Of a stretch of 64,000 bases of DNA, positions 36,541-53,086 are shown piece after piece. The notes beneath the pieces were generated by a model. It saw only the letters and a list, made by a program, of their open reading frames with translations. It did no database searches and was not told the DNA's origin. The position numbers were made by a program, and so were the translations under genes. Position 1 is the first letter of the stretch. Each line of letters opens with the position of its first letter. The DNA comes from a virus (lineage: Duplodnaviria; Heunggongvirae; Uroviricota; Caudoviricetes), in the IMG/VR virus record IMGVR_UViG_3300042401_001180, one strand, 5' to 3'.

Positions 36541-37464
36541 ATGAGAAATTTAATCCGAGAATGCCTAATTGAAGAATTTAGACCTGATCTAATAAAAGAA
36601 TGTACAATCGCCGCAGTAAGACTGGATGATGGTGTTGTTTTAGCAAAAAATAGGGATCGAGGATATAAAGCAAATGTGGAAGTTGTACACGAATTAATAG
36701 ATGATGTTGAGGTTCTTTATTGGAGAGATGTTGATACAGATTGGAGTGAAGGGATGAATGAATATGGGATTGGTATCGTTAATTCAAGTCTTATGGTTTC
36801 TCAGGACGAAAAAGAAGGTAAAGAAGTAGAAAAGACCAGGAAAGATAAAACTACAAAAAAAAGACCATCATACGATGGTAATAAAATTAGAAAGGCTTTA
36901 ACTTATAAAACATTACCTAAAGTAATTAAATCAATTGTTGGTTATTCAGGTGAGGATAAAAAAGATGTTGGTTTAAAAGGGGAAACATTTGTTTCAGATT
37001 CAAATAACATATATGTTGTTGAGATGACATCAAAACATTCACCAATTATAAAAAAATTAAATAAAGAACAAAAAGTTCTTGTTAGAACAAACCACGGAGT
37101 TTACCACAAAGAAGCGGGATACACAAAAGGAGAAAAGAAAAAATCATCTCACACAAGATTAAATTTAGCAAAAAAACATTTAAAAAATGCTAAAACACCT
37201 ATGGATGTAATTAATAAATTAAAAGAAAAATATAAAGAGGATCCGTTTTTAAATCCATATAGAACTGATAATATGTACCATATGCAAACTACAGGTCAAA
37301 TTATGATGGATCTAGACAAAAAAGAAATTGTTATCAGAATGGATAATGAAATGGGTAACTTTGTGGGGATCAAAAATAAATTACCTAAAGATTACACACC
37401 AAAATTAAAAGTGAGAATTGATAAAGAAAAAACTCATAATAAAGGTAAAAAATTACCAACATAA
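36541..37464 (+). CDS. hypothetical Lys-rich protein (307 aa) with MRNLIRECLIEE N-terminal family motif
   Basis: ORF followed by a terminator. Confidence 0.5.
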   Translation: MRNLIRECLIEEFRPDLIKECTIAAVRLDDGVVLAKNRDRGYKANVEVVHELIDDVEVLYWRDVDTDWSEGMNEYGIGIVNSSLMVSQDEKEGKEVEKTRKDKTTKKRPSYDGNKIRKALTYKTLPKVIKSIVGYSGEDKKDVGLKGETFVSDSNNIYVVEMTSKHSPIIKKLNKEQKVLVRTNHGVYHKEAGYTKGEKKKSSHTRLNLAKKHLKNAKTPMDVINKLKEKYKEDPFLNPYRTDNMYHMQTTGQIMMDLDKKEIVIRMDNEMGNFVGIKNKLPKDYTPKLKVRIDKEKTHNKGKKLPT

Positions 37465-37465
37465 A

Positions 37466-37500
37466 AAACCCACCTTGTGAGTGGGTTTCATTTATATTAC
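37466..37500. terminator. bidirectional rho-independent terminator
   Basis: aaaaAACCCACttgtgaGTGGGTTtcattt. The minus strand gives the hairpin followed by TTTTTTAT. Confidence 0.6.
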
Positions 37501-37507: not shown

Positions 37508-37681
37508 TTAAGCTTTGTTTTTCGCCACAATAGACCAAATAGCCCCTGTTAATGTCATTGCTCCACCAACAATCTCAGTAATTGTCGCTTCATCCACAAG
37601 TCCTTTCATTACAACGATACCACCAACAAACGTTAATGCGTGTCGGATAATACCCATAATTTGTTCTTTAGATAATTTCAT
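37508..37681 (-). CDS. holin-like small membrane protein (58 aa), not in ORF track
   Basis: Manual translation MKLSKEQIMGIIRHALTFVGGIVVMKGLVDEATITEIVGGAMTLTGAIWSIVAKNKA: two TM helices and a charged C-terminus, directly downstream of the endolysin gene. Confidence 0.4.
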   Translation of the reverse strand: MKLSKEQIMGIIRHALTFVGGIVVMKGLVDEATITEIVGGAMTLTGAIWSIVAKNKA

Positions 37682-37716: not shown

Positions 37717-38541
37717 TTACTTAAGTAGGTTATAATACTCTTTAAAGTGTTTAATTCTATCTGCAAGTCCTATTGTACCCCCATTTACTCTCTTTGTTAC
37801 TGCAGTTACCGTAGTGTCATCAGATCCCTTATCACAGATACTCCAAAGTTTGTTTGAGTCAAAGAAAAATGCGGCAGAAGCCAACGGATATTTAGTCGCA
37901 ACCAAGTCAGGATTTGCAACACAATCTTCACCAATAAATTTTGTAAAACTTGTGTAGTTACCTTTACCTGTTAATTGGATGTACCCTCTACCTCTAAATT
38001 TATACCCTTCTTTTGATGCCTCGTCTCCGTTATTCATACGGTTAGCATAAACTCTTGATGCAATCTTTTCAGGTTGTTTTGCGTATGATTCAGCCAAGTT
38101 ACCAGGAAAGTATTTACCAAACGTTTTTTTTAATCCATCAGCAGAATAATTTAAATTTTCTGATACCGCTTTAAATCCTCCTGACTCATGTCCACATTGT
38201 GATAAAAAGTGAGCAAGTCTAAGATTTGTTGTAATGTTAAATTTCTTTGCGGTTTCCGATATTTGTGTAATAACAACATCAGGAATATGTCCTTTTAGTT
38301 TTTCAATATTCAATCCTGTTACCGGTGTGATTACAACATCTTCTTTAACCACCTGAGTTGTCCCGAACATTTTAGACCAAGTACCGTCACCAACAATACC
38401 ATCAGCGGTTAATCCGTTTTTAGTTTGCCATTCTTTTACTACCGTTTCAGTTTTAGGTCCAAAAGAACCATCAACAGTTAATCCTAATTTCTCTTGAAGT
38501 TTTTTTACATCGTCTCCTTTCGATCCTACTTTTAATAACAT
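37717..38541 (-). CDS. endolysin: N-terminal peptidoglycan-binding domain + glycoside hydrolase family 19 (chitinase/lysozyme-like) catalytic domain
   Basis: PG_binding_1 repeats (LQEKLGLTVDGSFGPKT, WQTKNGLTADGIVG) followed by GH19 hallmarks HFLSQCGHESGGF and YKFRGRGYIQLTGKGNY. Confidence 0.85.
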   Translation of the reverse strand: MLLKVGSKGDDVKKLQEKLGLTVDGSFGPKTETVVKEWQTKNGLTADGIVGDGTWSKMFGTTQVVKEDVVITPVTGLNIEKLKGHIPDVVITQISETAKKFNITTNLRLAHFLSQCGHESGGFKAVSENLNYSADGLKKTFGKYFPGNLAESYAKQPEKIASRVYANRMNNGDEASKEGYKFRGRGYIQLTGKGNYTSFTKFIGEDCVANPDLVATKYPLASAAFFFDSNKLWSICDKGSDDTTVTAVTKRVNGGTIGLADRIKHFKEYYNLLK

Positions 38542-38551: not shown

Positions 38552-39229
38552 TTATTGTTTATTTTCTGTTGCGTATTTAATACCCATAATAGTTCCCACT
38601 ATTGAGAATGCGTTTGTTAGAAGTATACCAAATATGTTTGACCAAGCAGCCCCTATAACTTGAGTGTCTTTACCTATTACAAGTGTAAAGACATATACTC
38701 CTGTGGTAACAATACCAACACCAATAATGATGTATAGAGCAACTCTAACAATTGTTGATATCAGTTCTGTTTGGTTTTTCTTTTGGAGTATGTCCAAGTC
38801 ATTTAATGCGTTTGTCTTAGATTCTTCAGCCCTTATTCTTGCACTTTCAGATTTAATCATCTCCTTTTGTAGTTCTTGTTGAATCTTTTCGTTCTCTTCT
38901 CTCCAATCAATTAACTCACCATTCTGTTTTTCTATTTGTGTCTTTTGTTCTTCAGCCTCTTTTAGTGTTGATTGAATATCTTCCATCATTTTTTGATTCT
39001 GTTCGTTTAACGTTACAAGTTCTTCATTTTGTTTTTGTATTTTTTTTGTCATCTCAAGACGTTTTCTTCTTTTGTCCCCGTCTTTTGTTTCACAATCCTT
39101 TAAATACTTTTTAAAGTCCTCATCATTTTCAGTATCAATAAGTTTAGTAATATTACCTTCAAGACCTATACCTTTTTTAAGGTATAAGTCCATCAATGTT
39201 TTTTTAGTGTTACTATCTATTTTTATCAT
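38552..39229 (-). CDS. coiled-coil protein with C-terminal double TM (putative lysis accessory: holin/antiholin/spanin-like)
   Basis: Long Q/E/K heptad region, then two hydrophobic helices. Lies between the receiver gene and the endolysin gene. Confidence 0.45.
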   Translation of the reverse strand: MIKIDSNTKKTLMDLYLKKGIGLEGNITKLIDTENDEDFKKYLKDCETKDGDKRRKRLEMTKKIQKQNEELVTLNEQNQKMMEDIQSTLKEAEEQKTQIEKQNGELIDWREENEKIQQELQKEMIKSESARIRAEESKTNALNDLDILQKKNQTELISTIVRVALYIIIGVGIVTTGVYVFTLVIGKDTQVIGAAWSNIFGILLTNAFSIVGTIMGIKYATENKQ

Positions 39230-39663
39230 TTGTAAACTTTAAATGGTAATGTTCGATTTTTGTAACCGTCATAATCTTTTCTAAACTCTTCTAAACGTGG
39301 TTCAATGTCATCTGATTTGATAATCCAAAATTGAGCTCCTGCCTGAACAGCCTTTGCTTGTTCTTCTGGTTCATTACTTGATGATATAATCCCAATAACT
39401 ACGTGATTACCGTACTCAAAATTAATTTTTCTAATTAACTCAATACCATCAAAAGAACTACCAATGATGTTTAAATCAACAAACACACATTCAGGTTTAT
39501 TATTATCGTCCCCACTTTTGAACCATTTTTCAAATTTCTTTGCCGCTTCGTCAGAGCTATTTAACGCATTTAAAGACAAACTTATGTCCAATAAAGAACA
39601 CGCATCTTCAAATACTAAGTGGAATAAATCCTCATCATCAACTAATAATATTGAATCAATCAT
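39226..39663 (-). CDS. orphan response-regulator receiver domain protein (CheY-like)
   Basis: ILLVDDED acidic pocket, VFVDLNIIGSSFDG phospho-acceptor Asp, IGIISSS, and FWIIKSDD lysine all at canonical positions. No output domain. Confidence 0.7.
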   Translation of the reverse strand: MIDSILLVDDEDLFHLVFEDACSLLDISLSLNALNSSDEAAKKFEKWFKSGDDNNKPECVFVDLNIIGSSFDGIELIRKINFEYGNHVVIGIISSSNEPEEQAKAVQAGAQFWIIKSDDIEPRLEEFRKDYDGYKNRTLPFKVYK

Positions 39664-39678
39664 TTTTGTTTTTTGTTT

Positions 39679-41124
39679 TTATTTGTTTATTTTAATTTTA
39701 ATTTTTGTTCCTGTTTCTAGTTTTTCAAACTCCATATTAAATCCGTGTTCTTCTAATATTGTTTTAGTGATTCCTAACCCTAAACCACTTTCAGAATCCG
39801 CATCTTTTTTTATTTTTCCACCAGTAACATTTTCAAATTCTTTTTGTGTAAAACCAATACCATTATCCTCAACAATCAAATCATTGTTTTCCATATAAAT
39901 TTTAACAATTTTAGTATCACTATTATTATATCTTAGCCCATTTTTAATTAAGTTATCAATAGCATTCCAAAATAAAGTTTCATTGACATTTAATGTTACT
40001 AAATCATCAAGTTCTACTTGATTTTTATATGAAGTATTTGTTAAATATTTTAATAATGATTCTTTTATATCAACCATATCTCTATCTAACACTACAGTAT
40101 GTTTTACAAGGTTTGTAAATTCATAAACACTTTTATAAACCTTCTGTGTGTGAGCCAACCCATCTTTTATCATTTTAATTGGGGATGTTATCTTTAGGTT
40201 GTTCATCTCGTCTACTGAAATTCTTTTTTCTAATGATGATAACCCTCTTGGGATATATGTGTTAATACCTGAGTGCATATCGTGTCTTATGATTCTAGCC
40301 GCATACTCCAAGTAAGTGTTTTTCTTATTGATATCTCTTAACTGACTTTCAATTTCAACATCTTGCACTTTAATCGTTTTTCTTTGTGTTAATACAACCA
40401 GAGTTAGAACCAAGATAAAAAGTATTATAGACGCCCAAATTAAATACATCTTTAATTTATTTCTCTCAACCTTTAAATCTTTGGTTTCTACTTTTAGTCC
40501 TCCATTTTCAAGGTTTAGTCCAATAATTTTTTTCTCCTTACCTAACGTTTTTATTGTCTCGTCTTTGGCATTAATAACATCTTTACTCTCACCATTTTTA
40601 AGAAGTTGTTCTTTTTCTTCAATTAATTTTTGTAACTTACCTTCAATTTCATTTGCAAGTTTTTTCATATCTGAAGGAGAAACATTATCATAAGATTTTG
40701 GTAAACTACTTAAAAATTCTTTATCCTTAGCCAAACTAGCAGCAACATCCGCAGATACTTCATCCACTTCAGGTACCTCGTCTTTTGGTGTCTCAAATAC
40801 GACTTCAGGTGCCAACTCTACAACATCAACATACCCTTTAACCCTTTCAAGGTACCAGTCAGCTGCGTCATACGCCCCCCTTTTATTTAGTAAGACACCA
40901 ATCTCCCTACATACATTTGCTTCAGATTTTGTAATATTTTTTTTAGATTTTAATAGATTATTAATCCCCACCTTATTAATAAGTTCTGTGATTTTAGAAT
41001 CATTAGGACACGTAGGGATTCCCTGGTTCAAAACAATTTCATTTGATTGTTTTTTTATTGTTTGGGAATTTAGATTAGTGAAACTAATTAAAAATAATAA
41101 AATTAATAATATAGTATTTTTCAT
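39679..41124 (-). CDS. sensor histidine kinase with signal peptide, ~220-aa extracytoplasmic domain, one TM
   Basis: H-box YAARIIRHDMHSGINTYIPRGLSSLEKR. HATPase_c N-box NAIDNLIKNGLRY, G1 EDNGIGF, G2 GLGLGI. Confidence 0.75.
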   Translation of the reverse strand: MKNTILLILLFLISFTNLNSQTIKKQSNEIVLNQGIPTCPNDSKITELINKVGINNLLKSKKNITKSEANVCREIGVLLNKRGAYDAADWYLERVKGYVDVVELAPEVVFETPKDEVPEVDEVSADVAASLAKDKEFLSSLPKSYDNVSPSDMKKLANEIEGKLQKLIEEKEQLLKNGESKDVINAKDETIKTLGKEKKIIGLNLENGGLKVETKDLKVERNKLKMYLIWASIILFILVLTLVVLTQRKTIKVQDVEIESQLRDINKKNTYLEYAARIIRHDMHSGINTYIPRGLSSLEKRISVDEMNNLKITSPIKMIKDGLAHTQKVYKSVYEFTNLVKHTVVLDRDMVDIKESLLKYLTNTSYKNQVELDDLVTLNVNETLFWNAIDNLIKNGLRYNNSDTKIVKIYMENNDLIVEDNGIGFTQKEFENVTGGKIKKDADSESGLGLGITKTILEEHGFNMEFEKLETGTKIKIKINK

Positions 41125-41126
41125 AA

Positions 41127-41723
41127 TTATAGTTTGATTTTATATGGATATCTAACAACAACAGGTCTCCATTTTTCTTTATAGTTTAATTCCCAATTTA
41201 ATCCAGGTTCTTGGGGATATTGTATATTGTATTTTTTCCATTCATTGTCCTGAGACACCGGACATCTCCTTACCAAGGAAAAATTACCTGTACGTCTATT
41301 ACCTATAAAAAAGTAACTACTTAAATCAATTGACATTATACTTGTATCTGAATATGAGTAGTATAAATAAGCATTGTCTACTGATGCGGTATATAACCAA
41401 TGCTCAATAGTATTAACTTTATTTTGTAAACTATCGTAAGTGTAAAACTTATGTTTAATTACAGTATCCAAACTATCAATAACATAAACTCTTCGATTAC
41501 AAACCTCAGTTAAACTATCAATTATTTTTTCTTGGATAGAAATATCTTCCTTATACCCATTAACTCTATATCTTTGGTTACTTAATAATAATTCAATATC
41601 TCTATATTGTTCTGTAGTCATTATAACCACAGAATCACCTTTAAGTTTTGTCTGTACTGGATAGTTTTGTGATAAACTTAAAAATGATATAATTGTAAAT
41701 AATAATGTTATAACTTTTCTCAT
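41127..41723 (-). CDS. secreted protein (198 aa) encoded between the two kinase genes
   Basis: Signal peptide. ATGA and 3-nt junctions to the flanking kinase genes. Confidence 0.5.
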   Translation of the reverse strand: MRKVITLLFTIISFLSLSQNYPVQTKLKGDSVVIMTTEQYRDIELLLSNQRYRVNGYKEDISIQEKIIDSLTEVCNRRVYVIDSLDTVIKHKFYTYDSLQNKVNTIEHWLYTASVDNAYLYYSYSDTSIMSIDLSSYFFIGNRRTGNFSLVRRCPVSQDNEWKKYNIQYPQEPGLNWELNYKEKWRPVVVRYPYKIKL

Positions 41724-43339
41724 TTAAATTTAATTTTCATTTTAGTTCCTATTTCATTTTTTTCACAGGTTATATCAAATCCGTGTTCTTCTAATATTGC
41801 AACACAAATATTTAATCCTAACCCTGTTCCTGATTCTTTTTGTCCTTCTTTTCTTGTATACGGTTTTGATAGGTGATCAAAATCTTCTTGGGTAATACCT
41901 CTACCATTATCTTGTATGTATACATATTTTTCATCTGAAGTTATTTTAACGAATTTGGTATCAGAATCATTATACTTCAACCCATTTCTAATTAAATTGT
42001 CAACTGCGGTACAGAATAGTGGTTCGTTTACTTCTATTGTTGGTAAATCCTCAATGATAACTTGACTACTATATGCGGTTGATGATAGATAATCGTCAAG
42101 TATACTTTTTAAATTACACTCTACTTTATTTAAAACCACATCTTTTTTAACTAGATTTGTAAACTCATACACCCCTTTATATACTTTTTGTGAGTGTTTT
42201 AATCCTTCTTTAATCATTTTAATTGGTGCTTCAATTTTTAATGATGCGATATCCTCAGAACTTAATCTTCTCTCTAAAGAACTTAATCCTCTAGGCATAT
42301 ATGTATTAATACCTGAGTGCATATCGTGTCTTAATATCTTTGCGGCATGTTCTAAGTAAGTGTTTTTCTTTTCTATTTCTTTCCTTTGTTCGTAAGAGTT
42401 AGTAATATCTGTTGCAATTTTCATAATACGATAAATCTTACCGTCTACACCAATAATAGGATTGTAAGTTGCTTGAAGATAAATTAAGTTTCCATCTTTT
42501 TTCTTTCTAATGATTTCACCCATAAAAAAATGCCCTTCTTTTAAAGTGTTCCAAAAGTTTGAATATTCTTCAGAGTCTTCTACTCCATCTTCAACAAATA
42601 TACTATGATGTTTACCAACGAGTTCATTTTGCGAATCATAACCTAAAGTACTTAAGAATAAATCATTTGCAAATTTTATGTTACCATCTAAATCAAATTC
42701 GATAACGGCATTTGATCTGTTAATTGCATTCATTCTATTTGATATTTCTTGTTCAGTCTTTTTTAAAGAAGTTAAGTCTTGACGAATTGACATAAACTCT
42801 AACAATTTACCATTTTCATCAAAACTACATTTAATAAAAGTATCCACATAATAAAGACTTCCGTCTTTTGCTCGATTAATACAAACTGAGTTCCAAAGCC
42901 CTTTATCTACAACAACAGTTTTGTACATATCAGACCAAAACTCTTTTGGGTGTGTTCCAGAATTTACAATATTGTGATCTTTACCAAGAACATCTTCTAA
43001 TGAATAACCTGAGATTTCGGTAAATTTTTGATTAACGTAGGTAATCTTTCCTTTTGCATCGGCTTTAGATATGATGGAAGAAGAGTTTAAGAAATGTTCT
43101 AATTCTACCAACTTATCCACCGATTCTTTAGATACGGTATCTTTTGTAGATTTAATAAAATCTTTAATTAATAATATTGATATGGGAATGTATGATATAA
43201 CCCCAAAGAATTCTAACCATCTAGTGATTTCTGTGGATTCTCGTAAACCAACAAGAACCGAAATTTTAACACACATATAAGTAACCATCAGTAATGCTGC
43301 GATAACTAATGTGATTTTTATTCTTAAACGATATTTCAT
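41720..43339 (-). CDS. sensor histidine kinase with N-terminal TM segments and two PAS domains
   Basis: PAS-like blocks (ITYVNQKFTEISGYSLEDVLGKDHNIVNSG...; KFANDLFLSTLGYDSQNELVGKHHSIF...). Same H-box as the other kinase (HDMHSGINTYMPRGLSSLERR). HATPase NLIRNGLKYN, DNGRGIT, GTGLGL. Confidence 0.8.
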   Translation of the reverse strand: MKYRLRIKITLVIAALLMVTYMCVKISVLVGLRESTEITRWLEFFGVISYIPISILLIKDFIKSTKDTVSKESVDKLVELEHFLNSSSIISKADAKGKITYVNQKFTEISGYSLEDVLGKDHNIVNSGTHPKEFWSDMYKTVVVDKGLWNSVCINRAKDGSLYYVDTFIKCSFDENGKLLEFMSIRQDLTSLKKTEQEISNRMNAINRSNAVIEFDLDGNIKFANDLFLSTLGYDSQNELVGKHHSIFVEDGVEDSEEYSNFWNTLKEGHFFMGEIIRKKKDGNLIYLQATYNPIIGVDGKIYRIMKIATDITNSYEQRKEIEKKNTYLEHAAKILRHDMHSGINTYMPRGLSSLERRLSSEDIASLKIEAPIKMIKEGLKHSQKVYKGVYEFTNLVKKDVVLNKVECNLKSILDDYLSSTAYSSQVIIEDLPTIEVNEPLFCTAVDNLIRNGLKYNDSDTKFVKITSDEKYVYIQDNGRGITQEDFDHLSKPYTRKEGQKESGTGLGLNICVAILEEHGFDITCEKNEIGTKMKIKFK

Positions 43340-43554
43340 ATTAATAAATATGACAATACCCTAAAAAAAACTATTTACTTTTTTTGTGTTTTAAATAAGA
43401 GACTACTAAAATTCCAATCATAATAATTGGGACAATGAACGCAACAATGATTTCCATAAACTTTTTTTTAATAAATAATAAACTATATCAATAAAACTAT
43501 AACAAATGAACAAAGTGGTTGTTTAAATTAACAACCACCTCATTTAAATTAATA

Positions 43555-44289
43555 TTACACCATTTTCAACAAGATGTCCGCCGTCCCCTCCCAAGTTTTG
43601 ATTTGAGATTTTGGAATCCAAAACTCCATCTCACCGATTTCGTCAACACGTTTCATATAGTCCAAACGGAAAGACTCAGCTTGTGACTTGTCAGTGATGT
43701 AAGGAACACCTACGTGTTTAGCACATGTCTTACCCAACCCAGTCAACATTGAGAACTCATCTGTAAGTGTTTTCATACAACAAGTACAAACCGATCCACG
43801 TTTGATTGTAAGTTTCGCTGCGAATTTCACAGCTTTAGGTGAAATAGAAATAACCTTAGTGATATCCAAAAGAATTGGGTTGAATTTCAAACCGTAACTC
43901 TCTTTAAGAGATACCCCCGTCTTACGTCCAATTTTAATCGTATCTCCGATTGCTGGAATGTTCAAATGAACAGTTGCTGCTTTGTTCTCTTCTTTTTGGA
44001 TTTGATTCAAAGCGACTGAGATTTGTTTGTCAGACAATTTTCCGTATTGTGCAAGTTTACCTTTCAATTCGATAACGAAAGAATTCTCACCCTCGTATGC
44101 TGCGATTTTTTTCATATCGTCAGTCATCTCAACAGCTTTCGCTTCCACAGGATTGTTAAATATTTTCTCAACCGCAGTTCTTTGATTAACTGTTAATGAG
44201 CCATATTTACTCATAGCGTCTTTCATTTTCAAGATGAAAGAGTTAGTTCCTTTGTAGTTCTTTACTTGTGTTGTGATGTCAGTTGCCAT
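43555..44289 (-). CDS. hypothetical protein with internal ~30-aa duplication (start revised to MATDITT)
   Basis: A -7 box TATCTTTGTA overlaps the first ATG of the track ORF, so the second Met was chosen. Internal repeat NSF[IV][LI][KE][ML]K...YG.L...Q. Confidence 0.5.
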   Translation of the reverse strand: MATDITTQVKNYKGTNSFILKMKDAMSKYGSLTVNQRTAVEKIFNNPVEAKAVEMTDDMKKIAAYEGENSFVIELKGKLAQYGKLSDKQISVALNQIQKEENKAATVHLNIPAIGDTIKIGRKTGVSLKESYGLKFNPILLDITKVISISPKAVKFAAKLTIKRGSVCTCCMKTLTDEFSMLTGLGKTCAKHVGVPYITDKSQAESFRLDYMKRVDEIGEMEFWIPKSQIKTWEGTADILLKMV

Positions 44290-44309
44290 ATTTTTCCGTT
44301 TTGATTTAT

Positions 44310-44319
44310 ACAAAGATAG
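44310..44319 (-). promoter_or_regulatory. Bacteroidetes-type -7 box
   Basis: Minus strand CTATCTTTGT (TAnnTTTG). Confidence 0.4.
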
Positions 44320-44359: not shown

Positions 44360-44430
44360 ATAAAATTTGTGATTAGTAAAGGATTCGAACCAATGACACG
44401 TCCATAAAATGGATTGCTCTAACCAACTGA
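44360..44430 (-). tRNA. tRNA-like gene, possibly Lys(TTT); weak anticodon and T stems
   Basis: Acceptor GGTTAGT/ACTAATC and D-arm GCTC/GAGC are good, with a GGTTCGAATCC T-loop. The anticodon loop ATTTTAT is closed by only 3 bp. Confidence 0.4.
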
Positions 44431-44517
44431 GCTAACTAACCATATAAAATATAAATAATAATATTCAGGTTGTCAATAATTCACATACATTTTAAATACT
44501 AAATATATTTATTTTAT

Positions 44518-45150
44518 ATGAAAAATATAATCAAAAGAGTTTTAAAAGAATTTGTTGAATCAAAAGATATTACACTGCAAGAGATTTTTATAGATCCTTA
44601 CAATTTAATTTTATCTGAAGGTAAGTCTTTTGTAAAAATACCAAACGGTACCGAATCAATATTATTAAGAAAAATAGAATCATATTATAATTGGCCACCA
44701 ACAGTAAATAAAATATGGTGTTCCGATATTAAAGAAAAGTTTAAGGAAGGTATACCTATAAAGTCATGTTTAAAAAAGTTTGAATTAAGTTTAACAAATC
44801 ATTGGATTCAAAGATTGTTTAGAACAAGTGAGGACGATTATAAATTGTTAAACCCTCGAACAGGTAATGTTGGTAAGTTTTATAACCCTTCTATTGTTAA
44901 TCCTGATATTTTTGAGGGTATTGAGTTATTTTTTAACAGTAAAGATAAGATTAATGATTTTATTGATAACTCAAAAAACTGGATTCCTTTAAGTGATAAA
45001 TTCATAATTTTAAAGTCAAAATCCTATCAAACAATTATAGAATTAAAAAAAATGGATCAGGGAACATATAGGGTAATATTCATAACACAAATCAAAGGTG
45101 TTCCGTTTTTTGATACCCCTGAGTTGAAAAAATCAAGATTAATAAAATAA
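44518..45150 (+). CDS. hypothetical protein (210 aa) with MKNIIKRVLKEF N-terminal family motif
   Basis: ORF followed by a terminator. Confidence 0.5.
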   Translation: MKNIIKRVLKEFVESKDITLQEIFIDPYNLILSEGKSFVKIPNGTESILLRKIESYYNWPPTVNKIWCSDIKEKFKEGIPIKSCLKKFELSLTNHWIQRLFRTSEDDYKLLNPRTGNVGKFYNPSIVNPDIFEGIELFFNSKDKINDFIDNSKNWIPLSDKFIILKSKSYQTIIELKKMDQGTYRVIFITQIKGVPFFDTPELKKSRLIK

Positions 45151-45152
45151 AA

Positions 45153-45185
45153 AAGGTGGGTTACCCCACCTCAGTTACACTTATT
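45153..45185. terminator. rho-independent terminator (minus-strand sense strongest)
   Basis: aaaaaaGGTGGGttaCCCCACC. The minus strand is followed by TTTTTTATTTT. Confidence 0.6.
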
Positions 45186-45405
45186 ATCGTCAAATGTACG
45201 ACGCCTGTTGGGTACTTACAGGTGAACCGATGATTACCGTCTTTCGACGTATTCGGGGGTACATCCCTCCTTTTCAATCACCCCACTAACCCCTAAAGGT
45301 TGGTGGATGACTTTTTATATGGAAAATCATAAAACCATTATCTCAATTCGATACATCAAAGATATATGTATTATATATAAATTCCAAACTTTTTAGTAAA
45401 TATTT
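45186..45405 (-). ncRNA. ORF-free, GC-enriched structured region (candidate ncRNA, function unknown)
   Basis: Nested hairpins (CGTCaaatgtaCGACG, CCGAtgattaccgtctttcgacgtatTCGG, GGGatgtaCCC). No ORF. Sits between the terminator and tRNA-Met. Confidence 0.3.
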
Positions 45406-45409
45406 TTTG

Positions 45410-45483
45410 TGGTCCTTGTTGGAATCGAACCAACCACCTACTGATTATGAGTCAGTTGCTCTAACCGAATGAGCTAAAGGACC
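45410..45483 (-). tRNA. tRNA-Met(CAT) (or Ile-LAU; anticodon CAT)
   Basis: Acceptor GGTCCTT/AAGGACC, D GCTC/GAGC, anticodon stem ACTGA/TCAGT with loop CTCATAA, T stem GTTGG/CCAAC. Confidence 0.8.
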
Positions 45484-45644
45484 TAATTGGTGGAGATTTG
45501 ATGCCAACGTATGATCACCCCTACGTCTCGTTTCTGCGTATTCGGTACTCCACCTTTGTAAGTTCCTCTTACTTACACCCCCATTCGTGGACTTTCCGAC
45601 ATCCCAATGGTTTTTACCGTCCTATCGGAGTCAGGTAACCGCTG

Positions 45645-45722
45645 ATGTCAGGGTGGGATTCGAACCCACAATGAACAACCTTTTTACGGGACTTGGTACC
45701 ATACCTCATTACACTCCTGACA
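45645..45722 (-). tRNA. atypical tRNA-like element (perfect 7-bp acceptor and T-arm, no canonical anticodon arm)
   Basis: Acceptor TGTCAGG/CCTGACA and T-arm GTGGG-TTCGAAT-CCCAC. The 44-nt internal region does not give a 5-bp/7-nt anticodon hairpin. Confidence 0.35.
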
Positions 45723-45887
45723 AACTTCGACTCTTCAGCTTTCTACTCCCAGCACCGAGGAATTGTATATAACTTAGCCCATCTCACCGCTGTGTGGGAA
45801 CTGAAGTTTATCGTCTTTTTCTTATCGTAAAGATAAACAATATAAATAATATAAACAATAATGGTGTCATAATTTTTTAAGTTTTTG

Positions 45888-45987
45888 TAGTCAGGACAGG
45901 ATTCGAACCTGTATGGTAATTTTTTCAGTACCTCCACAACCCATGGATTTACGTGGTCTTTGCGTCTACCAATTTCGCCACCTGGCT
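45888..45987 (-). tRNA. atypical 100-nt tRNA-like element (Leu-like 5' half GCCAGGTGGCGAAATTGGTAGACGC)
   Basis: Acceptor AGCCAGG/CCTGACT (one mismatch), Leu-like D-arm, T-arm ACAGG-TTCGAAT-CCTGT, variable-arm-like hairpin GGTActgaaaaaatTACC. The anticodon region is non-canonical with a 15-nt loop. Confidence 0.35.
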
Positions 45988-46320
45988 ATGTTGAGGGTGA
46001 GAAGCCCTCTGTGTTGTTGACTAGTTTAACCTACCCTAAAGTCATTTTAGGTACAACCGTTTTCTGTTTACTATGATGGTAAAGCTTTCACCACAAGGGC
46101 CGGTCTTCGTCAGCTCAATATCTATCCCTTTCTCAAGGGAACAACACAATATTGTTGATAGTGTTGGGATACCCGTCTCGTCCCAATCTTAACTGCATCG
46201 TCTGAGTTTTCTCAGGGCCCTCGGCAGGGGGTGCTGAATTCCTGATCCACTCAGGATTGTCGACATCCGTTGAGATGGGGGAAAACCACTATCAATATTT
46301 TCAAAGAACTTTTTTCCTTA
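45988..46320 (-). ncRNA. GC-enriched ORF-free structured region (candidate ncRNA; tmRNA or other not confirmed)
   Basis: ~330 nt with local GC well above the genome background (e.g. cagggccctcggcagggggtgctgaattcctgatccactcaggattgtcgac). Immediately downstream of promoter repeat copy 1. No ORF. Confidence 0.35.
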
Positions 46321-46380
46321 TTTGTTTAACAAAGATATGTAATCTATTTCAATCTACCAAATCTTTTTTTACTTTTTTTT
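46321..46380 (-). promoter_or_regulatory. repeated strong promoter module, copy 1 (A-rich UP-like tract, -33 TTTG, -7 TATCTTTG)
   Basis: Minus strand aaaaaaaagtaaaaaaagaTTTGgtagattgaaatagattacaTATCTTTGtt. Near-identical to 47640..47700. Confidence 0.55.
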
Positions 46381-46546
46381 GTGGGACCCGCTCCCCACAC
46401 TGAACTTGTACTTCGTTCTATTAAGCGTTTTTTTCAGTTTTTTTAACCAATCAGTATTCGTGTTAGTTTTAACAAATTTAAATCTTCCTGATTCGCAAGT
46501 TCCTGATAAAACTTCTCTCATCATTCATTTGTATTAATTGTTTATT

Positions 46547-46619
46547 TGGTGGACACTGTGGGAATCGAACCCATACGATCTGATTGCAAATCAGTCGACC
46601 TGCCGTCGGCATCAGGCCC
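46547..46619 (-). tRNA. tRNA-like element with encoded CCA; anticodon loop contains TTGCAA (Cys-GCA or Ala-TGC); acceptor stem does not pair
   Basis: T-arm ATGGG-TTCGATT-CCCAC and a 3' end AGTGTCC-A-CCA. The 5' region GGGCCTG... is not complementary. Possible pseudo-tRNA or part of a larger RNA. Confidence 0.3.
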
Positions 46620-46624
46620 ATTTG

Positions 46625-46696
46625 TGCGGGTAGAATGAATCGAACACTCATCTCCACATTGGAAGTGTGGAGTAATAACCATTATACGATACCCGC
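46625..46696 (-). tRNA. tRNA-Gly(TCC)
   Basis: Acceptor GCGGGTA/TACCCGC, anticodon stem CCACA/TGTGG with loop CTTCCAA, T-arm GAGTG-TTCGATT-CATTC. Confidence 0.8.
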
Positions 46697-46702
46697 TTAT
46701 TG

Positions 46703-46795
46703 TACTGACGGTTGGATTCGAACCAACGTTTTAAACTTACCGCTACAGGCATAGATGATATAAGCATCCACTGGTACGTCAGCATAATCGTCAGT
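46703..46795 (-). tRNA. atypical 93-nt tRNA-like element (perfect acceptor ACTGACG/CGTCAGT and T-arm; candidate anticodon hairpin GGATG-CTTATAT-CATCT; 25-nt variable region)
   Basis: Folding gives anticodon TAT with one GU pair, an aberrant D-arm and a very long variable region. Confidence 0.35.
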
Positions 46796-46867
46796 CTTTC
46801 CTGACCGTCACCCCCAACCCACAGGTATGAACCCGTATCGTAGTAAAGCTTGGTTGGCTATTAGTTG

Positions 46868-46939
46868 TTGCAGGAGAAGGGTTCGAACCTCCGACCTCAA
46901 GGTTATGAGCCTTGCGAGCTACCACTGCTCTATCCTGCG
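46868..46939 (-). tRNA. tRNA-Met(CAT), initiator-like (C1xA72 mismatch)
   Basis: Acceptor CGCAGGA/TCCTGCA with a C1-A72 mismatch, D GAGC/GCTC, anticodon stem CAAGG/CCTTG with loop CTCATAA, T-arm GGAGG-TTCGAAC-CCTTC. Confidence 0.7.
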
Positions 46940-46960
46940 ATATACCATTTGTAGTTTAGT

Positions 46961-47000
46961 AGTTGACTCAAACTCTCGTTTCACCATCTTGAGTCAACAG
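46961..47000. other. perfect 10-bp inverted repeat hairpin (GTTGACTCAA-n17-TTGAGTCAAC)
   Basis: Read directly from the sequence. A second imperfect hairpin GGGAGTAGG...CCTACCCCC lies at 47075-47120. Confidence 0.5.
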
Positions 47001-47120
47001 GTTAATGCACTTTACGAGTTTCCCGTTTCTTACAACCACAATATTTTTATTTCAATGAACTTCTTCTGTCTTCACGGGAGTAGGACACCAACCTCTAACT
47101 TCCTACCCCCGTTCTCTGTC

Positions 47121-47165
47121 TTACAAAGATATGTAATCACTTTTGATTTGCCAAATTTTTATTGA
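47121..47165 (-). promoter_or_regulatory. repeated promoter module, copy 2 (-33 TTGgcaaatcaaaagtgattacaTATCTTTG)
   Basis: Shares the TATCTTTGTAA -7 region and an upstream A-tract with copies 1 and 3. Confidence 0.5.
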
Positions 47166-47655
47166 ATAAAACTTCCCCTTCTTTCATATATTCCTTTTTC
47201 ACTTTTTCAATCAAGGATTTTAAAGCAGTGTTACCTTGTGCTGTTTTTTTAAGATCCTCAAGTTTAGGGTTACCTTTAAAACCAACCTTAGTATAAGACG
47301 TTCCGTTTTCTTTACCCCACACAATGTTAGTTAAACACAATTTGTCGATTTTCTTTTGTTCCTTTTCTTTTTCTTTCTCGAATAAAAGATTATCAATAAC
47401 TGAATCGAGTGTTTGTGGATAATCAAATTCTTTGGGTAAAGTTTTACAATAGTTATAAACCTCGTTTAAAACTTTAGACATACCTTCATAAGGTTGAACA
47501 TTTGTATTACCACCGTGTCCGTCATTTTGAGCATATGCAGTTTTTTTACCGTTTATAAAAACATCAGCCATAAAACAAGTAGTTTCTTCGCTAAACATTT
47601 TGTTAATCTTTACATTTTTAAGTTCTATTTTCATAATGTTTTTTTTGTTTATCAA
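47137..47655 (-). CDS. hypothetical protein (172 aa)
   Basis: ORF downstream of promoter copy 3. Confidence 0.5.
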   Translation of the reverse strand: MINKKNIMKIELKNVKINKMFSEETTCFMADVFINGKKTAYAQNDGHGGNTNVQPYEGMSKVLNEVYNYCKTLPKEFDYPQTLDSVIDNLLFEKEKEKEQKKIDKLCLTNIVWGKENGTSYTKVGFKGNPKLEDLKKTAQGNTALKSLIEKVKKEYMKEGEVLFNKNLANQK

Positions 47656-47700
47656 ATGTAAGTAATCTATTTCAATCTACCAAAACTTTTTTTACTTTTT
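47640..47700 (-). promoter_or_regulatory. repeated promoter module, copy 3
   Basis: Minus strand aaaaaaaagtaaaaaaagtTTTGgtagattgaaatagattacTTACATTTGat, about 90% identical to copy 1. Confidence 0.5.
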
Positions 47701-47706
47701 TTTCTG

Positions 47707-47790
47707 TAGTCCGGAAGGGACTTGAACCCTTAATCCCTCATGGGAATTTGATTTTAAGTCAAACGTGTATACCAATTCCACCACCGAACC
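47707..47790 (-). tRNA. tRNA-Leu(TAA)
   Basis: Acceptor GGTTCGG/CCGGACT (two GU pairs), anticodon stem TTTGA/TCAAA with loop CTTAAAA, long variable arm TCCCatgaGGGA, T-arm AAGGG-TTCAAGT-CCCTT. Confidence 0.75.
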
Positions 47791-47867
47791 ATTTTACCAA
47801 TATGTCAAAGAACCCTTCTTGTTTGTTCTACAAATATAAAACTTTTTTTCTATTCGCCAAACACCTA

Positions 47868-47900
47868 AAACAAAAAAACCCCTCTTTGTTAGAGAGGGGC
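47868..47900 (-). terminator. rho-independent terminator (minus strand)
   Basis: Minus strand CCCCTCTCTaacaaAGAGGGG followed by TTTTTTTG. Confidence 0.6.
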
Positions 47901-48075
47901 TTCAAAATTTATTATATAATTAATTTATCATACCATCTCCTTATAGGAACGATCCTCAGCTATCGCCAATCCGCCTAATAATATGATATGTAAATTTTTC
48001 ATTTGCGTTTTTATTTGTTTTGTTATAAATATATGTAACTTTTCAAAAGTGTCAAGTTATTTCATATTTTTTTAA

Positions 48076-48447
48076 TTACCCCCATCTTCCTAACCATTGC
48101 ACAACTTCTTCAGCTCCGTCAGATGAATTACGTTCAGGTGTTTGATCTTCTTTACGTCCAAATCTAGAGCTTTCATAATAAACCTTATCGTCTTTGTGTT
48201 TCGCATCTGAGTCTTGAACTCTATATGTCCCGTTATCATTCAAATAAATTCTATATTTGGTTCCATCCAAATTCAACCAATTTTTATTTAACGGCCAACT
48301 ATATTCAATATCATTTTTTCTCAATGTACGAGCCATTAAATCTAACGGGTTTTTTGGCATATCTCTATCCATTCCAAACCCTTCTTTAATCACTTTTTCG
48401 ATAACATCAATTAATTGTGATTCTGTAAATCTGACAGTTTTTTTCAT
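48076..48447 (-). CDS. hypothetical protein (123 aa), N-terminal MKKTVRFTESQLIDVIEKVIKE family motif
   Basis: ORF. Confidence 0.5.
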   Translation of the reverse strand: MKKTVRFTESQLIDVIEKVIKEGFGMDRDMPKNPLDLMARTLRKNDIEYSWPLNKNWLNLDGTKYRIYLNDNGTYRVQDSDAKHKDDKVYYESSRFGRKEDQTPERNSSDGAEEVVQWLGRWG

Positions 48448-48466
48448 TATATATTATTTATATTTT

Positions 48467-49090
48467 TTATGCAAATTCTTCATCCTCAAAGTCCTCAAAC
48501 TCATCAAAAGGATCCTCACGTCTTTTTGTTATTATCGTTCCTTCACGATCGATTTTACTACCAGATTTGAATGTGTCTTTTGGTAATTTTCTATAATTTT
48601 CAGGTTTATAATCTTCAGGGTGTCTTTTTTTTTGAATAAAGTCGTCCCAACCTTCATCTAATTCTTCATCTCTTCCTTTTGTTTTTGCAAATGCTTTCTT
48701 TAAATCATTTACAGAATGTCCACCAATTGAATCGTATGGTTCATCTTCATCAGCAAAGCCTTCTTTTTCTAATAAATATTCAATATCGTACGCCAATTCA
48801 TCATAATTATAATCATGTAATACGTCCACAATATAATACTCATCCATTTCATTAATAGCATCAATTGACATTCCAAGTTCGTTTTCCAAGATATCTCTTG
48901 CTTCTTCAATTAAATCTTGAAGTTCTTGTTCACCTCTATCAGTCTCACCCCACTCTTCATCTTGTTGTTGTTCTTCATCACCATAGTATGGATCATACAT
49001 ACTTCTGTCTTTATAGTCATCGTTTTCTTTAATAACACGTTTAACAATACGTGCTAAATCCGATTCTGTTAATCTTATAATTCTTTTCAT
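48467..49090 (-). CDS. hypothetical highly acidic protein (start revised to MKRIIRLTESDLARIVKRVIKE)
   Basis: Track ORF trimmed to the Met carrying the family motif. D/E-rich body. Confidence 0.5.
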   Translation of the reverse strand: MKRIIRLTESDLARIVKRVIKENDDYKDRSMYDPYYGDEEQQQDEEWGETDRGEQELQDLIEEARDILENELGMSIDAINEMDEYYIVDVLHDYNYDELAYDIEYLLEKEGFADEDEPYDSIGGHSVNDLKKAFAKTKGRDEELDEGWDDFIQKKRHPEDYKPENYRKLPKDTFKSGSKIDREGTIITKRREDPFDEFEDFEDEEFA

Positions 49091-49100
49091 TATATATTTT

Positions 49101-49607
49101 TTAGTCTTCAATATTATCTAGTAAATCTACTATTTTATCCAACGACCTTTCTAACGCATTAAGATTTTTTATCGTTGCGTCGTCTTCAACCATTTCTTCT
49201 AACTCTCTAACTTTATCATAAATTTCACTTAGTTTGTTTAGTAATGATTCAAGATCAATATCATAATCTTCAAAATCACTTTTACGTAATTTCATATCTC
49301 TTTTTTCAAATGAAGAAACCAATTGTTTTAAAATACTCAAAGTTTCTCTAAGATCTAAAAAATCATCCATTAATACACTCGCAACTTTATATTGTGCATA
49401 TTCAAAAGAATCTCCTTTTAACATCGATTTAAACTTACCAAACCCAATCATTAGTTTACTAATCATCCCAAAAAGACCTGTCGCACCTTTAGAAGCGATT
49501 CTTCTATTTTTCATTTCTTTTTCAATGGATTCATATCCACCTTCATTCATTACACGTTTAACAATTCTTGTTAAATCGGATTCTGTTAATCTTACAATTT
49601 TTTTCAT
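49101..49607 (-). CDS. hypothetical protein (168 aa), N-terminal MKKIVRLTESDLTRIVKRVMNE family motif
   Basis: ORF. Confidence 0.5.
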   Translation of the reverse strand: MKKIVRLTESDLTRIVKRVMNEGGYESIEKEMKNRRIASKGATGLFGMISKLMIGFGKFKSMLKGDSFEYAQYKVASVLMDDFLDLRETLSILKQLVSSFEKRDMKLRKSDFEDYDIDLESLLNKLSEIYDKVRELEEMVEDDATIKNLNALERSLDKIVDLLDNIED

Positions 49608-49641
49608 AATTTTTTATTTTATATATAAATAGTCTATTAAT

Positions 49642-50586
49642 TTAAAAATCAATTCTTCCACTGAAATTTTCTAACTTGGTACATTCCCTCACTTCAACAA
49701 AATCGTCTTCCATATCAACAGATTCTCTTCTTTCTTCAACCGTTATGTCATTATCATCAAAATGATTTACATATACCTCAACGTTAAACGGTATTAGTTC
49801 ATCATCTTCTTCAATACTATTATAGTGTTCTAATGATATAAATTCTCCCTCATATTTTAAAAATCCATCACCTAACGTCACATTAACACTTCTTCTTATA
49901 CTATACTTCAAATCACTTGAGTCTAAATTTCCATCACCATCACAACTCCCACAACCATACTCACCATGTCCGGCACATTCTTCACACGAAAAATTTCCAT
50001 CACCATCACAATTAAAGCACTCTAAATTCCCTTTACCACTACAATCTCTACACTTTTCCGTACCATCACCATCACAATGAAAACATTCGACTTCTATTTC
50101 ATCCCCCTCATCATCTTCTTCTGTTTCAGTACCTTTACCATCACAGTAATGACAATCATCGATCCCTTCACCTGAACAAGTATCACAATCTATAGTACCA
50201 TCACCATCACACGAATCACAATCAATTCTACCATTACCATCACAATTCCCACAATGTTCACTTCCTGTACCATCACAATCATCACATTCAGCTTGTATAT
50301 GTACGGTATCTTCATATAAATCAATAATTGATGTATGTAAATTCATAAGAATCCCCTCTAACGCGGATAATTGGCTTTTTCTATTTAAAATAAAAAACGT
50401 AGCAATTAACACTTTAATTTTTTCTGGGTTACTACTTGTTTTGGATAATAATAGTTTGGCGAAATGATCAGTACTCATACACTTTTTAATATCACGAATT
50501 CCGATGAATCTATCTCCCTTTTCGCTTTTTAATAAATCTGCAATATTTTTTGATATTGAATATATTTTTTTAAATTCAGGTGTCAT
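49642..50586 (-). CDS. CxxC-repeat (DnaJ zinc-finger-like) acidic protein
   Basis: About 14 tandem C-x-x-C-(D/S)-G-x-G units (CDDCDGTG, CGNCDGNG, CDSCDGDG, CDTCSGEG, CHYCDGKG, CFHCDGDG, CRDCSGKG, CFNCDGDG, CEECAGHG, CGSCDGDG). Confidence 0.55.
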   Translation of the reverse strand: MTPEFKKIYSISKNIADLLKSEKGDRFIGIRDIKKCMSTDHFAKLLLSKTSSNPEKIKVLIATFFILNRKSQLSALEGILMNLHTSIIDLYEDTVHIQAECDDCDGTGSEHCGNCDGNGRIDCDSCDGDGTIDCDTCSGEGIDDCHYCDGKGTETEEDDEGDEIEVECFHCDGDGTEKCRDCSGKGNLECFNCDGDGNFSCEECAGHGEYGCGSCDGDGNLDSSDLKYSIRRSVNVTLGDGFLKYEGEFISLEHYNSIEEDDELIPFNVEVYVNHFDDNDITVEERRESVDMEDDFVEVRECTKLENFSGRIDF

Positions 50587-50626
50587 ATTTATAAATAGTA
50601 TTATAAAATAAAAAAACGTGTATTAT

Positions 50627-50974
50627 TCATACACGTTTCACTAACTCTGTTGGAACCAATCTTCTTAAAGGTATTCCGTAATTTGAAATAAACCAATCAA
50701 GAAGTAACCCTTCAGTTTGATCATCAAAATATCCTTCAATATCATTTATTAGTTCCATTGGACAATTCAAATCTCTACCGTGTCCAATATTATTAAAATA
50801 GAAAAATACAAAATATGTTATTTTAGTTTTACTATCCTTTAAATAAAATGTTATAGTATCCTCATTATAATCGTAACCTAACTTTAAATTATTTAATTGG
50901 GGATAAAACTTATCAATATAATCTGAAAAGGATTTTTCTAAACTCATAGTTGTTGAATTTGAATCATAATCCAA
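50627..50974 (-). CDS. hypothetical protein (115 aa)
   Basis: ORF. Confidence 0.45.
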   Translation of the reverse strand: MDYDSNSTTMSLEKSFSDYIDKFYPQLNNLKLGYDYNEDTITFYLKDSKTKITYFVFFYFNNIGHGRDLNCPMELINDIEGYFDDQTEGLLLDWFISNYGIPLRRLVPTELVKRV

Positions 50975-51237: not shown

Positions 51238-51406
51238 AATTAATTAAATAAATATTTTTTGTGTTTTAACTTTCTATTATATAGATTCTTTGGTGTCTCA
51301 ACTCTTGACACAAATCTCCCATCAAAAAATCCCGCCTCAAGTTGATCCTTTCTTACCTGAGTTCTTTTCATTCTATGTTGGTCATATGTTTTCATCTTGT
51401 TTTTTT

Positions 51407-51820: not shown

Positions 51821-51833
51821 TGTTTAATTTTTT

Positions 51834-51914: not shown

Positions 51915-51923
51915 CATTTATTT

Positions 51924-51995: not shown

Positions 51996-52001
51996 CATAT
52001 A

Positions 52002-52457: not shown

Positions 52458-52473
52458 TGTTTCTATTTTTTTG

Positions 52474-53056: not shown

Positions 53057-53086
53057 AATTTTTTTTAACTGGCAAAATTAAATTTG

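Follow-up and report, generated by a model that had tools for sequence, protein, structure and literature searches.

The 64,000-nucleotide stretch under study (the window), which belongs to the IMG/VR virus record IMGVR_UViG_3300042401_001180, encodes a two-component signalling module that is composed of two histidine kinases (HK1 and HK2), a secreted protein (sec198), a CheY-like receiver (RR) and a protein that combines an N-terminal domain with a coiled coil and a membrane hairpin (cc225), and that is followed by genes for an endolysin and a holin. Comparison with related loci identifies cc225 as the fixed partner of the receiver, and the architecture of the circuit as far as cc225 is well supported by this comparative sequence evidence. 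We propose a many-to-one phage two-component circuit in which RR would switch cc225, which in turn would gate or modulate lysis, a reading that we hold tentatively and at somewhat less than an even chance. The seven genes are all located on the minus strand and are transcribed in the order HK1, sec198, HK2, RR, cc225, endolysin and holin, the first five of which constitute the module:

41720..43339, minus strand: HK1, 539 residues, with two PAS matches, a HATPase_c match and two transmembrane helices
41127..41723, minus strand: sec198, 198 residues, with a hydrophobic leader and without family match
39679..41124, minus strand: HK2, 481 residues, with HATPase_c match, leader, ectodomain and one transmembrane helix
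39226..39663, minus strand: RR, 145 residues, with Response_reg match
38552..39229, minus strand: cc225, 225 residues, with N-domain, coiled coil and two transmembrane helices

The receiver and its coiled-coil partner

In a survey of 80 module loci from IMG/VR, we find an invariant core consisting of one or two kinases, RR and a cc225 homologue, which is realized in variants of five genes (HK1-sec198-HK2-RR-cc225), four genes lacking sec198 and three genes containing a single kinase. The gene for cc225 follows RR in all 73 of these loci that have room downstream, at distances of –4 nucleotides (nt) in 40, –1 nt in 26 and +3 to +5 nt in seven cases. The same arrangement prevails in another set, 80 loci from metagenomes that were retrieved via the N-domain of cc225 and independently of the kinase, where RR is placed directly upstream of the N-domain in 77 of 77 loci with sufficient room. 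An earlier note on this DNA had described RR as an orphan lacking an output and had delimited the operon to positions 39226-43339. Since cc225 is always encoded directly after RR, the receiver is not an orphan, and the functional unit, to which cc225 belongs, reaches at least to position 38552.

RR is by far the most conserved component of the module, with 77–96% identity across 45 distinct sequences, and it carries a conserved C-terminal extension of about 30 residues. The protein matches the Response_reg profile of Pfam with 34.8 bits (cut-off 30.2), and its best solved relative is 3ilh (E 9e-6). In a MAFFT alignment, its residues D63, S94, W113 and K116 coincide with D57, T87, Y106 and K109 of CheY, and D9/D10 were paired by hand with D12/D13, as the CheY N-terminus was misaligned by the program. 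All of these residues are invariant in the 45 homologues, and the receiver thus holds the full catalytic set that had been ascribed to it, including the acidic pair, the acceptor D63, S94 and K116, next to W113 as the aromatic switch.

The partner of the receiver contains an N-domain (residues 1 to about 65), a coiled coil and a membrane hairpin (transmembrane helices 167-185 and 199-217), with about 160 charged helical residues preceding the two C-terminal transmembrane helices in its hydropathy profile. Hydropathy and flanking charges predict an N-in/C-in topology for the hairpin, which is the best conserved stretch of the protein and rich in small and polar residues (Gly, Ala, Ser, Thr, Asn). 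No described family was found for cc225 in Pfam, PHROGs, NCBIfam or PADLOC, and a search of its profile against the sequences of the PDB returned generic coiled-coil matches only. A full-library search with residues 1–115 recovered only 146 representative clusters, nearly all of which match from the first few residues. The phage form of these N-domain proteins comprises 190–238 residues and ends in a hairpin with the near-invariant motif WSNMFGILLTNAFSIVGTIMGVKYA.

In a rare second form of 318–349 residues, the same N-domain and coiled coil are joined to a canonical kinase composed of HisKA (SHNLRxP) and HATPase_c. This form occurs in two loci (L091 and L094), directly after an orthologous RR, and a metagenome scan aimed at its detection mostly recovered the phage form again. 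L091 is found on a contig of a Bacteroidetes metagenome-assembled genome (MAG), where RR follows a PAS kinase with the same H-box as the kinases of the window and where the neighbours, unlike the lysis genes of the window, are bacterial genes encoding a Por_Secre_tail protein, sorted by the type IX secretion system (T9SS), and CreD. L094 is a fragment of 1,058 bases with the same gene order. Both cassettes resemble the phage module in the H-box, an RR of 65% identity and an N-domain (34% identity to the phage form, E 1e-14) with heptad-locked coiled coil, and they differ from it in their output, which is a soluble HisKA and HATPase_c kinase instead of a transmembrane hairpin.

The coiled coil varies in length and preserves its register. 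In all of 228 distinct phage-type cc225 sequences, the segment between the anchors KRLxITK and QKKxQxEL spans 51, 58, 65, 72, 79, 86 or 93 residues, and these seven length classes are separated by whole heptads throughout, a pattern with a probability of about (1/7)^6 to arise by chance if the six non-modal classes are independent. Where the kinase is fused, the spacing up to the phospho-acceptor histidine is 44, 58 or 65 residues, values that are congruent modulo 7. Such a register would be expected of a helix transmitting a conformational signal, and input domains are typically found N-terminal to a DHp, joined to it by a coiled coil. The conserved heptad register leads us to propose that RR, probably when phosphorylated, binds the N-domain, with the coiled coil relaying the signal to the output. 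N-domain and coiled coil would together behave as an input module, acting on a kinase in cellular loci and, in phages, on a membrane hairpin.

The two kinases and the secreted protein

Profile searches and hydropathy analysis confirm HK1 as a PAS-bearing membrane histidine kinase, as had been read from the sequence. It contains two copies of a PAS domain (PAS/PAS_3/PAS_9, about 72 bits) and a HATPase_c domain (61 bits at a cut-off of 26.4), which are preceded by N-terminal transmembrane helices at residues 12-30 and 44-62 with a loop of about 13 residues in between. HK2 matches HATPase_c with 41.2 bits at the same cut-off of 26.4, and its hydrophobic segments (5-23 and 228-246) define a leader ending in NLNSQ, an ectodomain of about 210 residues (roughly 220 in the earlier note) and a single transmembrane helix. 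The alignment of HK2 with HK853 (3dge, E 1.5e-7) begins at the second DHp helix and extends over the ATP-binding domain. With cores that are 57% identical over 221 residues (E 4e-82) and the unusual H-box sequence RHDMHSGINTY[IM]PRGLSSLE[KR]R common to both, HK1 and HK2 are paralogues, as had been suggested. A search of NCBIfam with the kinases and the receiver yielded generic matches only, far below the curated cut-offs.

Members of the kinase family share 46-64% identity. The H-box RHDMHSGINTY is invariant in all 100 distinct kinases, the N box DNLI[KR]NGL[KR]YN and the G1 box DNGxG of the ATP-binding domain are conserved, and G[LI]GL, the G2 box, is present in 96 of the 100. The catalytic motifs of kinases and receiver are in this way under strong conservation. 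Partner specificity of histidine kinases is carried by the first DHp helix and, because this helix is identical in HK1, HK2 and each of the 100 family members, both kinases most likely feed the same receiver. Phosphotransfer from the cognate kinases to RR is suggested by the operon linkage and the identity of this helix.

The sensory parts of both kinases point to different cues. The PAS region of HK1 aligns over about 195 residues with the tandem PAS domains of MmoS (3ewk, E 3.3e-28) and with PAS1 of NifL (2gj3) and the PAS domain of Aer (8dik), both at E 5e-14. It also scores 121 bits over the PAS1 region of the NifL model TIGR02938, a value below the cut-off for the whole protein, as expected for a single domain. 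By sequence, it belongs to the PAS-A subfamily of the MmoS/NifL/Aer type, whose PAS domains are flavin-binding redox and energy sensors, and it is probably flavin-binding as well. The N-terminal sensor of HK1 is swapped among relatives, which range from 313 to 707 residues and contain either tandem PAS domains, GAF and PAS, or the transmembrane hairpin alone. Most HK1-type kinases retain this conserved N-terminal hairpin, including the 313-residue form without other sensor. The ectodomain of HK2 is conserved; in its predicted structure, a disordered acidic linker joins a small alpha/beta domain to long helices. This model, of moderate overall score in the predicted local distance difference test (pLDDT 70.7), showed no significant fold match in the PDB.

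Between the genes of both kinases, sec198 encodes a protein with an N-terminal hydrophobic leader ending in LSLSQ, in line with the secreted protein that had been assigned to this position. We found no match for sec198 in Pfam, PHROGs, NCBIfam or PADLOC. Apart from the leader, its predicted structure (pLDDT 70.5) shows a single long helix (residues 37-115) together with a small beta domain, and it matches no fold in the PDB and a single entry in BFVD, an uncharacterised viral protein. The 86 homologues of sec198 all reside on metagenomic or assembly contigs. The gene is kept in five-gene modules, is absent from the four- and three-gene variants and is thus dispensable in many modules, and the protein may act as a periplasmic accessory of HK2.

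Linkage to lysis genes and the proposed circuit

The module of the window leads directly into genes for cell lysis, and terminator-like hairpins are found on both sides of the resulting block:

37717..38541, minus strand: endolysin, matching PG_binding_1 (49.9 bits), Glyco_hydro_19 (37.2 bits) and the endolysin family phrog_181 (237 bits)
37508..37681, minus strand: holin with two transmembrane helices, of the Phage_holin_10 (Pam3 gp28) family (63.5 bits, cut-off 27)
43509..43544, minus strand: terminator-like hairpin with a 15-bp stem, immediately past the upstream gene p252, and probably the 5' limit of the unit
37465..37489, no single strand: bidirectional terminator-like hairpin between the holin gene and the convergent gene at 36541-37464, the likely 3' boundary

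The Pfam matches and the two transmembrane helices of cc225 bear out the earlier description of an operon running into a coiled-coil membrane protein, a GH19 endolysin and a holin. The endolysin, which starts 10 nt past cc225, contains neither a signal sequence nor a signal-arrest-release (SAR) sequence. The signalling genes had also been described as co-directional and overlapping. They are co-directional, and among the four in question only HK1 and sec198 overlap, the remainder being separated by gaps; within the entire block, overlaps of 4 nt are confined to the HK1/sec198 and RR/cc225 junctions and the remaining gaps measure 2-35 nt. Since no gap exceeds 35 nt and terminator-like hairpins on the minus strand bracket the block from HK1 to the holin with none inside (five such sites were found in total compared to 1.9 ± 1.4 expected), these genes likely form a single transcription unit. 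A sigma-70 promoter scan remained at background (35 sites versus 36.6 expected) and a search for the Bacteroidota –7 motif upstream of HK1 found none.

The proximity to a lysin recurs in related loci. Flanks of at least about 5 kb on either side are available for 26 distinct IMG/VR modules, 15 of which have a homologue of the GH19 lysin of the window within 1.9 kb, and in the metagenome set the lysin is found within 2 kb of six of 11 distinct modules, amounting to 21 of 37 modules with adequate flanks. The gene occupies at least six different positions or orientations. On the 3' side of cc225 it follows either directly (0-29 nt), after one small membrane-protein gene (about 0.3-0.6 kb) or at a distance of 1.3 kb; near HK1 it is placed 3 nt before the gene on the same strand, 0.4-1.9 kb before it, or in divergent orientation (56-76 nt); and it is also seen downstream of the module on the opposite strand. 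In one locus (L008), an Amidase_2 gene is located directly upstream of HK1, and in several loci unrelated small membrane proteins, which are holin candidates by hydropathy alone, are encoded between lysin and module. Direct placement of cc225 upstream of the lysin is found in the window and in eight distinct modules (L011, L018, L026, L034, L035, L036, L066 and L134). In a genome of 270 kb, chance alone would, by rough estimate, place a lysin within 2 kb of a module in only a few per cent of cases, and the association is in this light strong. Overall, we rate the evidence for linkage as moderate, because the loci share ancestry and neighbouring genes tend to stay close through local rearrangements. 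The proposed linkage to lysis genes is thus recurrent without being universal.

On these grounds we envisage the following sequence of events. HK1 would read a cytoplasmic redox or energy cue via its MmoS/NifL/Aer-like PAS domains, and HK2 a periplasmic or envelope cue, aided by sec198 where present. Both kinases would phosphorylate RR at D63, the phosphorylated receiver would bind the N-domain of cc225, and the coiled coil, locked in register, would hand the signal on to the membrane hairpin with its two helices. In the most speculative step, the hairpin would be a holin or antiholin under regulation, or a partner of a holin, which would allow the circuit to advance or delay lysis according to the energy state of the host and to envelope signals, as a phosphorelay analogue of T4 lysis inhibition. 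Three features suggest a role in lysis: the genes are linked, terminator-like hairpins bracket them in one unit, and the hairpin of cc225 has a topology like that of holins. In its most specific version, cc225 would be a new lysis regulator, a holin or antiholin with a hairpin switched by the phosphorylated receiver, by which a phosphorelay joins cytoplasmic and periplasmic sensors to set the time of lysis, a proposal that we regard as rather unlikely in this precise form.

Several observations weigh against a function in lysis or against parts of the circuit. No homologue of the GH19 lysin is found within 2 kb of 16 of the 37 modules (11 of 26 and 5 of 11 in the two sets). In the 11 IMG/VR cases, none was detected in the 5-9 kb of flank on each side, and ten candidate neighbours of modules lacking GH19 that were checked revealed no other type of lysin. 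The loci come from related phages, and adjacency may in part reflect inherited synteny and local rearrangement. The window already contains a recognisable holin of the Phage_holin_10 family; cc225, with its 225 residues, exceeds the typical size of holins, and its sole match among holin families is Phage_holin_9 at E 0.67 and 10 bits, with no match in the lysis-category PHROGs. The hairpins of six divergent cc225 homologues weakly match one region of phrog_1544 (E 0.005-0.9), a phage family of 200 residues without known function, which may be a distant relative of the same architecture (corresponding to residues of about 150-225 of cc225 and positions 38552-38780 of the window). No T4-type late-promoter octamer was found upstream of HK1. 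With respect to the kinases, the profile searches recovered HATPase_c, PAS and Response_reg and failed for HisKA, as the H-box region, searched at E ≤ 10, went unmatched by every DHp model of Pfam (HisKA, HisKA_2, HisKA_3, HWE and others). The DHp is for this reason of a divergent type; the invariant RHDMHSGINTY motif occupies the place of the H-box, and the assignment of H281 in HK2 and H338 in HK1 as candidate phospho-acceptors relies on motif analogy with H-E-L-R-T-P-L. Finally, three viral contigs of 176-385 kb (L033, L042 and L043) each encode an isolated kinase of the HK2 type that shares the ectodomain and H-box, and neither RR nor cc225 was found within 8-10 kb of it.

Part of this evidence would be accommodated if the same circuit controlled a different process via the hairpin of cc225, with the adjacency to the lysin as inherited gene order. 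The hairpin might serve to exclude superinfecting phages, affect membrane potential or transport, bring about dormancy or pseudolysogeny, or feed back onto the membrane hairpins of the kinases; we consider such a role possible, if short of probable. Besides the modules without nearby lysin, the missing match of cc225 to holin families and the separate holin of the window, it is favoured by the conserved N-terminal transmembrane hairpin of most HK1-type kinases, which could be the contact of cc225, and by the situation in bacteria, where the same input module regulates a kinase and not lysis. It is countered by the persistence of the lysin near the module through at least six arrangements, which include direct cc225-lysin junctions of 0-25 nt and divergent lysin/HK1 pairs at distances of 56-76 nt, and by the inclusion of module and lysis genes in one terminator-bracketed unit in the window.

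Alternatively, RR might act mainly on kinases and regulators of the host, on motility or on envelope stress, as part of a host-takeover device in which cc225 serves as mere tether or scaffold. Stand-alone receivers such as CheY and DivK commonly act by protein-protein interactions, the conservation of nearly every RR residue would suit several partners, and the closest cellular relative resides in a Bacteroidota-type locus, so that host partners could exist. The perfect adjacency of RR and cc225, with overlapping stop and start codons, and the strict heptad register of the latter, which points to signalling via cc225 itself, make this explanation improbable.

Several features in the vicinity of the unit were noted in addition. 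The T4 late-promoter-like octamer TATAAATA is enriched in the window (27 copies compared to 14.0 ± 3.4 expected). Its minus-strand copies include those at 4988, 21206, 36530, 48455 and 50586; five of the eight are located 0-38 nt before gene starts and three have no listed start within 150 nt. The unit from HK1 to the holin has no copy ahead of it, though several other genes have one. A hydrophobic open reading frame (ORF) of 28 residues (MEIIVAFIVPIIMIGILVVSYLKHKKSK, 43371-43457, minus strand) lies between the upstream terminator and HK1; we considered it as a part of the module and regard it as probably excluded, with similar small ORFs in only two related loci (L034 and L065). The upstream gene p252 (43555-44313, minus strand) encodes 252 residues with a DUF6011 zinc-ribbon-like motif and also precedes the module in L026-L028. 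An array of 21 tRNA genes (44369-55208, minus strand) begins directly upstream of the module region and contains an unusually long tRNA-Ile(tat) of 94 nt at 46702-46795. The convergent gene on the other side (36541-37464, plus strand, 307 residues) shows a weak acyltransferase/peptidase-like (AAT) match.

Distribution, relation to known systems and implications

The module appears to be a property of a large, as yet uncultivated lineage of giant phages from freshwater. The window, with a GC content of 30%, is part of a metagenome contig of 270,513 bp and shows a phage-type content that includes 21 tRNA genes, RNA ligase, thymidylate synthase, endolysin and holin. We confirmed 428 relatives of the kinases in IMG/VR, many on contigs of 100-385 kb, and related contigs carry Peptidase_S74, T4_Y16D, Clp protease and a sigma factor. 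In several loci (L054 at 11138-11860, and L052, L057, L069 and L071), an ORF of 240 residues is inserted between HK2 and RR, which splits the module without loss of a part; its N-terminal sequence motif suggests a homing endonuclease of the GIY-YIG type. A scan for exact matches to two invariant peptides in 185,579 bacterial and archaeal genomes, one per species, a procedure that more distant cellular relatives would escape, identified five loci, all in MAGs of discordant taxonomy. With these numbers, the module is not a common host-derived gene, a possibility that the earlier note had raised against itself. In one of these settings (L090, an 89-kb contig of a MAG labelled Bdellovibrionota), an HK-RR-cc trio adjoins a PrkA/SpoVR/DUF444 set at a GC content of 49%, compared to 30% in the window, and the module is therefore present in elements of different hosts or backgrounds. 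Nucleotide and protein searches of GenBank phages retrieved no record that contains the module or resembles the window. The record MW462191.1 (L174, 20146-30496; 103 kb, 'Bacteriophage sp.') was considered as the one phage entry with an annotated kinase and set aside, as its CcmF/CcmL, HtrA, GlnE and CprR/ParS genes look bacterial. PADLOC models of defence systems matched none of the five module proteins.

That the contig is mis-classified and the locus bacterial, or that the module is a set of decaying passenger genes, we regard as highly improbable: the five pattern matches in MAGs labelled as bacteria, the bacterial-type neighbours in L091 (a T9SS-sorted protein and CreD) and the PrkA/SpoVR/DUF444 set in L090 are opposed by the phage genes of the window, its 270.5-kb contig, the IMG/VR relatives of 100-385 kb with their Peptidase_S74, T4_Y16D, Clp protease and GIY-YIG endonuclease insertions, and the conservation of all catalytic motifs across hundreds of divergent copies.

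A glutamine at the leader cleavage site is a pattern of Bacteroidota. Since the leaders of HK2 and sec198 end in this residue at the predicted cleavage site, the closest cellular relative is located beside a T9SS-sorted protein, and phages of similar size are predicted to infect Flavobacteriia, the host probably belongs to the Bacteroidota. The latter phages, a freshwater jumbo lineage of similar size termed 'moraphages', have been described without mention of kinases (PMC12619734) and may be of the same lineage as the window phage or related to it.

The module shares features with several known systems. As in CheA-CheY, DivJ/PleC-DivK and Cph1-Rcp1, the kinases have a core of class I that includes the N, G1 and G2 boxes, the receiver is CheY-like, lacks an output domain and has to signal via a binding partner, and more than one kinase most likely acts on it. 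The module differs from these in being encoded by phages, in a DHp that is unmatched in Pfam and in the adjoining coiled-coil/hairpin partner. With respect to MmoS, NifL and Aer, the tandem PAS region of HK1 aligns by sequence, with the difference that related phages swap this region for GAF and PAS or drop the PAS domains. Class II holins and pinholins contain two transmembrane helices in an N-in/C-in arrangement, which is also predicted for the hairpin of cc225, whose gene, in the window and in several relatives, similarly precedes the endolysin. Unlike these proteins, cc225 carries an N-domain and coiled coil of about 160 cytoplasmic residues and has no significant match to a holin family. 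In T4 lysis inhibition, the antiholins RI and RIII act on the holin T by direct protein binding, whereas the phage module is proposed to employ phosphotransfer. The resemblance is a functional analogy only, in that a periplasmic cue would adjust the time of holin triggering, with no sequence relationship. Finally, arbitrium and phage VqmA-type quorum-sensing receptors are likewise virus-borne sensors for a decision in the viral life cycle. They are one-component systems of temperate phages that control lysogeny (PMC7790227), unlike the full phosphotransfer circuit found here in giant phages.

The kinase, receiver and PAS parts of the module are of known kinds. A literature search for phage-encoded histidine kinases or two-component systems retrieved none of this kind. 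The sensor-kinase and receiver system described here, complete and intact, resides on a phage-type contig and has no counterpart among GenBank phages. The same search returned no description of a coiled-coil and membrane-hairpin partner of a receiver. As far as it showed, the new elements comprise a phage-specific kinase family with a DHp outside of the Pfam models, a fixed receiver partner built of an N-domain, a heptad-locked coiled coil and a membrane hairpin, the recurrent location beside lysis genes and, not described before as far as we found, a small N-terminal input domain that, through a coiled coil locked in register, would connect a free-standing receiver with a kinase or, alternatively, with a membrane hairpin.

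The adjustment of lysis timing to conditions is understood in few models only, such as holin clocks and T4 lysis inhibition, and to our knowledge next to nothing is known of it for phages of Bacteroidota and for giant phages. The module constitutes a signalling circuit that is widespread, specific to viruses and made up of clear and separable parts. If the proposed mechanism were true, it would provide the first lysis clock controlled by phosphotransfer and the first receiver domain known to control a membrane hairpin by way of a coiled coil. Should the link to lysis hold, abundant freshwater phages would tune the timing of their burst to the energy state of the host, a behaviour that would matter for modelling viral mortality, and a lysis switch gated by a signal would become available for engineering.

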